Shown one piece after another: positions 17,438 to 17,961 of a DNA stretch of 43,373 nucleotides. Source of the stretch: a virus; IMG/VR virus record IMGVR_UViG_3300026302_000002, positions 1 to 43,373 of that record. One strand, written 5' to 3'. The notes below the pieces were generated by a model. It did no database searches. It was given only the letters and a program-made list of their open reading frames with translations, and was not told where the DNA came from. Position numbers and translations under genes: made by a program. Within the stretch, counting starts at the first letter, position 1, and each line of letters begins with the position of its first letter.

Positions 17438-17468
17438 CGGATGGAGCCATGCGTGAGAGTTTTTGGCC

Positions 17469-17542
17469 ACGCTCGTAGCTCAACTGGATAGAGCACCCGC
17501 CTAACGAACGGGTAGGTGTGGGTTCGAATCCCACCGGGTATC
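17469..17542 (+). tRNA. Aberrant tRNA; the canonical fold gives anticodon AAC (Val). The body resembles tRNA-Arg(ACG) with one extra A in the loop. No encoded CCA.
   Basis: D arm GCTC/GAGC with loop AACTGGATA. T arm GTGGG-TTCGAAT-CCCAC. Acceptor ACGCTCG/CGGGTAT has one C-A mismatch and two G-U pairs. The anticodon stem has a C31-A39 mismatch, or alternatively a 5-bp stem with a 9-nt loop. Confidence 0.55.
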
Positions 17543-17544
17543 AG

Positions 17545-17580
17545 AGGCCCCGCCCTAGTGGCGGGGCCTCGTCTTTTCTC
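17545..17580 (+). terminator. Intrinsic terminator (end of the early-right operon)
   Basis: 10-bp stem AGGCCCCGCC / GGCGGGGCCT with a 5-nt loop, followed by CGTCTTTTCTC. Confidence 0.7.
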
Positions 17581-17587
17581 GCACCTC

Positions 17588-17616
17588 TTGACGGATAATC
17601 CCGAAAGGTGTGAAAT
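17588..17616 (+). promoter_or_regulatory. Late promoter (PR'-like)
   Basis: TTGACG (17588-17593), 17-nt spacer, TGAAAT (17611-17616). It lies just after the Q-like gene and just before a terminator. Confidence 0.6.
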
Positions 17617-17636
17617 CCGCGAAGCTGACATAGAAG

Positions 17637-17666
17637 CCCCTGCCGAAAGGCGGGGGTTTTGCGTTT
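17637..17666 (+). terminator. Intrinsic terminator about 20-45 nt downstream of the late promoter (tR'-like)
   Basis: CCCCTGCC-GAAA-GGCGGGGG hairpin followed by TTTTGCGTTT. Confidence 0.7.
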
Positions 17667-17781
17667 CCGGGGGTATGGGTTGGGAGATCCCGGCCGCCCC
17701 CGACCACTTTGCGGGCACCGAACCGGCAGGTAGCCGGTCGGGGTGAAGCGCCGGGGAGACCCGGCGGCCCGCGCCAATCAT

Positions 17782-17851
17782 GCGAGTCGTGATGGCACCC
17801 GCTGGCCTTCCAAGCCGTGCAGGCGGGGTTCGATTCCCCGGATTCGCTCCA
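17782..17851 (+). tRNA. tRNA-Gly(UCC)-like element with a degenerate D arm and weak anticodon stem; encoded CCA end
   Basis: Acceptor GCGAGTC/GATTCGC (one G-U), discriminator T plus CCA. T arm CGGGG-TTCGATT-CCCCG. Anticodon loop CTTCCAA is identical to E. coli tRNA-Gly(UCC). Only 70 nt, with a 3-bp D stem at best. Confidence 0.4.
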
Positions 17852-17925
17852 GACTGCCCGCCAACCCTCACCGGACCGAACCCACTCAGCTAGCCGGCTG
17901 CGGTGGCGGGCACCCTTTGTTTGCA

Positions 17926-17951
17926 CCCCGCTCCGGCGGGGCTTTTTCTTC
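17926..17951 (+). terminator. Intrinsic terminator immediately upstream of the holin ribosome-binding site
   Basis: CCCCGC-TCCG-GCGGGG hairpin followed by CTTTTTCTTC. AGGGGA and the ATG (17962) follow. Confidence 0.65.
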
Positions 17952-17961
17952 AGGGGACACG

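Follow-up and report, generated by a model that had tools for sequence, protein, structure and literature searches.

What is the role of two aberrant tRNA-like genes that lie, together with a promoter and three intrinsic terminators, between a Q-type gene and the lysis genes of a phage? The question is raised by positions 17438 to 17961 of the IMG/VR record IMGVR_UViG_3300026302_000002, a complete phage genome (43.4 kb, terminal repeats, 66.6% G+C) of which the whole stretch of 43,373 nt is called the window in the following. The original prediction, which was based on the sequence of this stretch alone, listed five elements in the interval, namely a tRNA gene, a terminator, a promoter, a second terminator close behind it and a hairpin-rich stretch ending in a third terminator. 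It likened their arrangement to the lambda PR'/tR' module with Q antitermination, and it considered the tRNA-like elements as possible decoding-altering tRNAs, decoys for host anticodon nucleases or RNA processing signals. All five elements were found where they had been placed, on the plus strand like all features described here. The region is probably the late-gene switch of a temperate Lysobacterales phage, of the phage 21/lambda PR'-tR' type, carrying two independently acquired and now aberrant tRNA cassettes. The individual parts of this switch are ordinary for a temperate phage of Lysobacter/Stenotrophomonas-type bacteria. The comparisons covered about 110 related loci (labelled L004, L118 etc.; L060 is a Luteimonas prophage), five host-type genomes, 401 or 151 genomes of the host order, pattern scans of IMG/VR, and the phages in INPHARED.

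The gene directly upstream of the interval, at 17009..17437, codes for a protein of 142 aa that can be placed by its fold. On the sequence level, the protein had no match in Pfam or PHROG, even at an expect value (E) of 10, and searches against PDB sequences returned nothing, or a spurious match to an ankyrin. An AlphaFold model based on a 25-sequence alignment reached a predicted local distance difference test score (pLDDT) of 82.8. With VIA-align, this model matched seven Q21 entries, 6p18, 6p19, 6p1b and 6jny among them, with Z values of 8.1-5.7 and residues 3-142 covered. AlpA (7xya) ranked behind them at Z 5.6, a sigma factor was matched in part at Z 5.2, and the first unrelated entry after that had Z 3.0. 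The phage 21 Q protein was also the top match in Foldseek, with weak scores (E 0.22, template modelling score about 0.5). In addition, two deposited phage records, BK059895 among them, list a homologue at 53% identity as antitermination protein Q. The protein thus has the Q21 fold expected of such an antitermination module, and we assign it on this basis to the Q21/AlpA class, the activity of which it would share. Relatives of the gene were found in 57 viral contigs, 43 metagenome contigs and 11 bacterial genomes. Since the bacterial genomes, which belong to Luteimonas, Lysobacter, Stenotrophomonas, Pseudoxanthomonas and Marilutibacter, are all from the Lysobacterales, the host of the phage is, to judge from these relatives, a member of this order. 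The only deposited phages with a homologue of the protein, BK059895 and OM373202, are labelled as Cylindrospermopsis cyanophages; as all genomic relatives of the protein are in Lysobacterales, these host labels may deserve a check.

In BLAST comparisons with the related loci, only two blocks of the intergenic region turned out to be conserved. The first of them, 17583-17674, spans the late promoter (17588..17616) and a promoter-proximal, tR'-like leader terminator (terminator 2, 17636..17666). The promoter consists of TTGACG (17588-17593), a 17-nt spacer and TGAAAT (17611-17616), exactly as originally read, and it is missed by a consensus promoter scan because position 2 of its -10 box is a G. 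Promoter and terminator are conserved in more than 100 related loci. The -35 box does not vary among 17 relatives, in which the spacer length is likewise preserved and the -10 box is TAAAWT-like; each of these relatives carries a G+C hairpin with a T tract downstream, in which the stem sequence varies and the pairing stays. Terminator 2 starts 20 nt past the -10 box of the window and folds as predicted: its 8-bp G+C stem (17637-17656) encloses a GAAA loop and is followed by a T tract. The late genes are thus preceded by a promoter and an intrinsic terminator, in an order that corresponds to PR'/tR' with about 45 nt of leader, and the lysis cassette of holin, endolysin and Rz lies directly downstream of the switch region. 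The Q21/AlpA fold of the upstream gene product, the conserved promoter with its proximal terminator and the position of the lysis cassette together bear out the lambda-like logic that had been proposed. In such a switch, the late promoter would be constitutively active and its transcripts would end as leaders of about 45 nt at terminator 2. After its accumulation, the Q-like protein would, as its fold and the anatomy of the region suggest, load onto RNA polymerase at the late promoter, and the loaded polymerase would cross terminator 2, the tRNA-like element behind it, a leader hairpin and terminator 3 to reach holin, endolysin and Rz.

How the first tRNA gene came to stand upstream of this promoter is suggested by the junction between the Q gene and the -35 box. 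In many relatives, the Q stop codon TGA lies inside the TTGAC of the late promoter. In the window, a repeat search found a 13-nt direct repeat, the left copy of which (17430..17442) includes the stop codon of Q along with the remnant of a -35 box and the right copy of which (17584..17596) contains the working -35 box; the copies are identical at 12 of 13 bases and start 154 bp apart. Since stop codon and -35 box overlap in the relatives and are separated here by 154 bp between the two repeats, the tRNA gene with anticodon AAC (17469..17542), hereafter tRNA(AAC), and the adjacent terminator 1 (17544..17580) appear as a 154-bp insertion that splits this junction. No copy of the 144-bp cassette was present in the 401 host-order genomes. 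Terminator 1 has a stem (17544-17570) of -27 kcal/mol (z -5.3) and a T run; its presence agrees with the original prediction, its stem being one of 11 bp in our fold and not of 10 bp. Early transcription would pass the Q-type gene and tRNA(AAC) and halt at this terminator, which would in this way end the early/Q transcript. Given their position upstream of the late promoter, tRNA(AAC) and terminator 1 would be transcribed together with Q, outside the late leader. The suggestion that three stacked terminators exceed what the lambda model needs can therefore not be upheld, as the late leader proper has two terminators (three if the weak T tail of the leader hairpin is counted), and the same is true of L118. 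The junction seems to be a hot spot for added genes in general, because several relatives carry small open reading frames between the Q gene and the late promoter (L004:3440-3670, L084, L085 and L118).

tRNA(AAC) is called by ARAGORN at default settings as tRNA-Val(aac), and with 49.8 bits against a gathering score of 29 it belongs to the Rfam tRNA family RF00005. By the same measure, host tRNA-Arg genes reach 64.6-73.2 bits, 15-23 more than tRNA(AAC), and the tRNAs of related phage loci 46.7-65 bits. The ARAGORN drawing and the sequence agree with the original description of an AAC anticodon, a C2-A71 mismatch, a G3-U70 pair and no encoded CCA. Both the sequence and the alignment to the covariance model show the core nucleotides to be intact (U8, A14, G18 G19, U33, the T-loop TTCGAAT and the 15-48 pair). 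The same applies in full to the D arm, the T arm and the positions of the tertiary pairs, with A15 and T48 corresponding to the state in Lysobacter tRNA-Arg(TCT). The suspected tRNA-Arg-like body was found as well: the best matches in the five host-type genomes are all tRNA-Arg (TCT, ACG, CCT, CCG), none is a tRNA-Val, and the alignment with them is colinear and free of gaps. Relative to the host genes, the changes in the acceptor stem are transitions that leave A1-U72, U5.G68 and G3.U70 and break the 2-71 pair (C2.A71). The discriminator is a C, positions 31 and 39 form a C31.A39 mismatch, and the CCA that is missing here is encoded by every host and phage tRNA compared. The anticodon loop reads CUAACGA, versus CUACGAA in tRNA-Arg(ACG), as if an A had been added and the pairing base of C31 lost, or else four bases substituted. 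We rejected the possibility that the extra A stems from a sequencing error at one base: as the anticodon arm is colinear with that of tRNA-Arg, removal of the A leaves it one base short.

Despite its AAC anticodon, tRNA(AAC) does not qualify as tRNA-Val, having an Arg-type body and a discriminator C instead of A73; nor does it qualify as tRNA-Arg(ACG), the body and A20 of which are present but with the loop CUAACGA and a mismatched 31.39 pair. Among the identity marks, A35 and C36 favour valyl-tRNA synthetase (ValRS), G3.U70, the alanine identity mark, favours alanyl-tRNA synthetase (AlaRS), and A20 is a mark for arginyl-tRNA synthetase (ArgRS). With marks pointing to ValRS, AlaRS and ArgRS, the charging of tRNA(AAC) cannot be predicted. 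No second copy of this gene was found in the IMG/VR pattern scans, by BLAST in the approximately 110 related loci or in the 401 host-order genomes. A search of INPHARED with both tRNA-like elements gave only matches of 81-84% to tRNA-Arg and tRNA-Thr genes of unrelated jumbo and Thermus phages.

The expanded loop had raised the possibility of a decoding-altering tRNA. In the strongest form of this idea, tRNA(AAC) would read the four-base codon CGUU or promote +1 frameshifting, as an open C31.A39 pair gives a 9-nt loop in which AACG is flanked by U and AA. To our knowledge, quadruplet decoders have loops of 8 nt. In tRNA(AAC), the arm has kept its 17 nt and the alignment to the covariance model shows a standard 7-nt loop (9 nt only if 31.39 is open), so that the 8-nt loop of a quadruplet or frameshift suppressor is not found; moreover, we saw no phage gene in need of a +1 shift and the element is a singleton. 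We consider such a role extremely improbable. A decoding-altering role in the wider sense did not fare better, given that both tRNA-like elements are singletons, that the canonical loop has 7 rather than 8 nt and that the codons concerned are rare and not enriched in late genes. In the phage, GTT accounts for 46 of the approximately 9700 codons counted and for 7.5% of the valine codons, and GGA for 8.4% of the glycine codons. Since both codons are rare and neither is enriched in the late genes, codon supply was rejected as the role of the tRNA-like elements.

A less exotic form of decoding would be that of a working valine tRNA, charged by ValRS via A35/C36, which reads the rare codon GUU and, with A34 deaminated by TadA, also GUC and GUA, as codon-supply cargo. 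The intact core and a score within the range of the tRNAs from related phage loci speak for this, as does the fact that GUC is the commonest valine codon of the phage (47%). Furthermore, engineered A34 tRNAs including Val-tRNA(AAC) decode in Escherichia coli (bioRxiv 10.64898/2026.05.15.725136; PMC11066159). However, the body is that of a tRNA-Arg and not of a tRNA-Val, and the discriminator C, C2.A71, G3.U70, C31.A39 and the lack of CCA all argue against a working valine tRNA, as do the small number of GTT codons and the singleton status of the gene. On balance, we hold this role to be possible, though clearly the less probable outcome.

The decoy idea of the original prediction can be put in a more specific form, according to which tRNA(AAC) is a variant of tRNA-Arg(ACG) whose altered loop escapes, or decoys, a host anticodon nuclease directed at tRNA-Arg. 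There are documented phage tRNAs in which a changed anticodon loop confers resistance to host nucleases (PMC10264068; PMC11555353), and tRNA(AAC) combines a tRNA-Arg body and a retained A20 with an ACGAA string that is shifted by one base within the loop. In the canonical register, however, its anticodon no longer reads arginine codons, so that it cannot replace a cleaved tRNA-Arg, its acceptor end is damaged, it occurs only once and no nuclease partner is known; we therefore judge this explanation very unlikely. Instead, we regard tRNA(AAC) as what seems to be remoulded tRNA-Arg cargo of doubtful function, the chief alternative being a functional tRNA that decodes GUU or acts by way of inosine.

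The second conserved block of the intergenic region, roughly 65 nt in length, is a stem-loop at 17856..17913 that we call the lysis-leader motif. It comprises an outer GCCCG/CGGGC stem, an inner CCRG/CYGG stem and a conserved GAYCAA loop. An nhmmer profile of the motif found it in 40 related loci. A degenerate pattern that represents only the 5' two-thirds of the motif hit at least 120 IMG/VR contigs, and 76 of 120 match the full profile including the 3' arm; 60 of those 76 contigs have no homologue of the 142-aa Q protein in the DNA fetched. A covariance model, R1, matches 96 of 96 non-redundant loci with 45-82 bits, and has one site each in 5 of 151 host-order genomes. At least 100 phage contigs, as well as prophages of Lysobacterales, carry the motif. 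In every case, it precedes the first lysis gene, either at a distance of 10-25 nt or with one tRNA-Met in between. Judged from N-terminal sequences without a family-profile scan, the first lysis genes behind it appear to code for several endolysin types as well as holins. The stems are paired in 98.7% of the alignment cells, versus 94.3% after shuffling and at most 66% with the partners slid. Covariation was seen at 3 of 11 pairs, one inner pair being G-C in 69 cases and A-U in 21. As most pairs never vary, the support for an RNA structure is moderate. The loop sequences are conserved too, as would be expected if a protein or another RNA recognises them. Rfam contains no family for the motif. 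We rejected the idea that it is a promoter for sigma-70 or sigma-54, or simply a terminator, since no matching box was visible by eye and most copies are without a T run.

Immediately upstream of the motif, between it and the leader terminator, relatives have a slot that holds tRNA-Met(CAU), tRNA-Trp or tRNA-Gly(UCC). tRNA genes downstream of Q, which had been noted as a parallel to Shiga toxin (Stx) phages, are thus a regular feature of this position. In the window, the slot is occupied by the second tRNA-like element (17782..17851), for which the original prediction of a tRNA-Gly(UCC)-like RNA with a collapsed D arm holds. RF00005 and ARAGORN at default settings gave no call there, and tRNA-Sec, the best match within the tRNA clan, reached 20.1 bits against a threshold of 47. 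A covariance model (R2) was derived from seven intact tRNA-Gly(UCC) genes that occupy the slot in related phages. Nothing else in the window scores as high with it as this element (41.1 bits, E 1e-8), the D arm of which has 8 residues versus 13 in the model and is thus 5 nt short. The annotation check proposed for the two elements, by ARAGORN and Rfam, was consequently positive for 17469-17542 only, and it took the R2 model to find 17782-17851. The anticodon loop, the T arm, the discriminator U73, the encoded CCA and the pairs G1-C72, C2-G71 and G3-C70 are kept, and a C27.U43 mismatch is common to the element and L011. At a lowered threshold, ARAGORN proposed an alternative fold of 79 nt with its 5' start at 17773, using an imperfectly duplicated 5' strand (17773-17779).

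The R2 match and the common slot place this Gly-like element in the tRNA-Gly lineage of the related phages. An intact tRNA ends 4-5 nt before the lysis-leader motif in 13 of the 96 loci, and the CCA of the window (17849-17851) lies 4 nt before it. On the other side, a tRNA-Met(CAU) begins 2-3 nt past the 3' flank of the motif in L212, L246, L199 and L250, so that tRNAs dock at both sides of the motif at fixed distances. No second copy of the Gly-like element was found in the IMG/VR pattern scan or by BLAST against the related loci. The possibility that the element is the 3' end of a host tRNA gene in a phage attachment site (attP) was rejected, as it has no significant similarity to the five host-type genomes and occupies the tRNA slot rather than a position next to an integrase gene. 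Other slots were also of interest. L060 has a T-arm-like relic (GCGGG TTCGAAG CCCGC; L060:3620-3680) just before the motif, which is called by neither ARAGORN nor Rfam and looks like another decayed slot tRNA, suggesting that decay in the slot is common. In L006 (3714-3792) and 15 similar loci, the slot tRNA-Met has 79 nt, a long variable region and three consecutive, initiator-like G-C pairs at the base of the anticodon stem; it may be an initiator, an elongator or a lysidine-modified tRNA-Ile.

The pattern of loss and conservation in the Gly-like element raises the possibility that both tRNA-like elements, and this one foremost, are punctuation marks for RNase P and RNase Z, the cleavage of which would free the leader and let the lysis mRNA start at the hairpin 17856-17913 as a protective or regulatory 5' end. 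In line with this, the acceptor stem, T arm, U73 and CCA are intact and the damage is in the D arm, on which decoding does not depend. There is also a likeness of 36.8 bits to mascRNA, a tRNA-like RNA processed by RNase P. Including the window, tRNAs end 4-5 nt before the motif in 14 loci, and in four a tRNA-Met follows 2-3 nt after it. Against such a role, most motif-bearing phages have no adjacent tRNA, which means that the motif needs no punctuation, and the fixed spacing could reflect a mere recombination hot spot. We therefore regard processing as a possible explanation, though an unlikely one. For the motif itself, our working guess is a 5' stabiliser or regulator of the lysis mRNA, perhaps coupled to tRNA processing, and we offer it tentatively. 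Speculative as well, and in our view improbable, is the picture of an undescribed cis-regulatory RNA of phage lysis operons, in which docked tRNAs and tRNA-like elements serve as RNase P punctuation that makes its 5' end, processing sets the stability or translation of the lysis mRNA, and the truncated tRNA-Gly is kept as a processing handle and not as a decoder.

Taken together, the two tRNA-like elements are, as far as comparative data can tell, most likely cargo that is decaying or marginally functional, and not specialised decoding devices. tRNA(AAC) would have derived from a tRNA-Arg and arrived with its own terminator as the insertion at the Q stop/-35 junction. The Gly-like element would be a local occupant of the conserved slot 5' of the leader hairpin that has lost 5 nt of its D arm. 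Several observations weigh against this interpretation of the region. tRNA(AAC) has an intact core and a score within the range of related phage tRNAs, and may be functional. Compensating changes set the acceptor stem of the Gly-like element apart from those of its relatives, which argues for past or present selection. Since both elements are singletons, conservation can be used neither way. Finally, no Q-binding or pause element was recognised; a conserved stretch does lie between the -10 box and the hairpin.

Between terminator 2 and the Gly-like element lies a phage-specific spacer (17668..17781) that is strongly folded (-70.6 kcal/mol, z -4.2) and includes the GAGA-loop stem at 17749-17766, in keeping with the hairpin-rich stretch originally described. 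No convincing relative of this spacer was found among the INPHARED phages or by BLAST in the related loci. Within it, 17711-17777 forms a three-way structure with a GCGGGC/GCCCGC closing stem, followed by G-CCA. This closing stem is the acceptor-stem sequence of the intact slot tRNA-Gly genes, the tRNA-Gly model giving only 12.3 bits, and the string GCGGGCACC of the structure is found again at 17906-17914. The stretch closes with terminator 3 (17926..17950), the stem (17926-17941) and T run of which abut the holin ribosome-binding site as predicted; L118 has a similar arrangement of terminator and ribosome-binding site. The late genes begin with the holin gene (17962..18210, phrog_920), followed by the genes for endolysin (18203-18775, phrog_7, PF00959) and Rz spanin (18885-19349, PF03245). 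Several other phages (L186, L143, L250 and L201) have a second long, conserved and structured element about 135 nt upstream of the lysis-leader motif, between the leader terminator and the motif. It is closed by CCGATCACC ... GGTGATCGG and is absent from the window. Calls by ARAGORN at low threshold in the leaders of the relatives were mostly implausible and were not used.

Comparison with its relatives makes the region a clear instance of a late switch of the Q21/AlpA type in phages other than the lambdoid ones of enterobacteria, with a Q family that is invisible to sequence profiles. It also shows tRNA cassettes entering and decaying at two precise hot spots, the Q stop/-35 junction and the slot beside the leader hairpin. 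That an Arg body should carry an A34 'Val' anticodon is curious, and would matter only if the RNA proves to be charged and used. The most useful by-product is the lysis-leader motif, which is strongly conserved, non-coding and located in front of many different lysis genes. If it controls their expression, it would offer a new handle on lysis timing in the phages of Stenotrophomonas, Lysobacter and related hosts.

Among known systems, the region is most readily compared to the Q21/PR'-tR' system (6P18/6P19; bioRxiv 10.1101/651190) and to AlpA of Pseudomonas aeruginosa (PMC9371919), with which it has in common a small antiterminator of the Q21/AlpA fold encoded just upstream. The predicted constitutive promoter, the promoter-proximal intrinsic terminator and the lysis genes behind it also follow the same order. 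It differs from these systems by a Q protein without sequence-level similarity to the Pfam Q families, by a very short leader of about 45 nt and by the overlap of the Q stop codon with the -35 box in its family. Stx phages such as 933W carry the tRNA genes ileZ, argN and argO between Q/PR' and the lysis genes. The region resembles them in having tRNA genes just ahead of the late genes, where they would be part of the Q-dependent late transcript. Here, in contrast, the slot is fixed within a few nucleotides of a conserved hairpin and its content varies between Met, Trp and Gly; its occupant in the window has a truncated D arm, and the other tRNA is located upstream of the late promoter. With the nuclease-evading phage tRNAs (PMC10264068; PMC11555353), tRNA(AAC) shares a non-standard loop on a host-type body. 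Those tRNAs, which are conserved among phages, have an unaltered anticodon, whereas tRNA(AAC) has a changed anticodon and a weakened acceptor stem and is a singleton. The Gly-like element, for its part, resembles the mascRNA-menRNA type (RF01684) in having an acceptor stem and T arm with a reduced D region, with a score under the gathering score of 42.5 that places it outside this family. In contrast to mascRNA, it has retained a full Gly(UCC) anticodon arm and derives from a tRNA-Gly lineage of phages.

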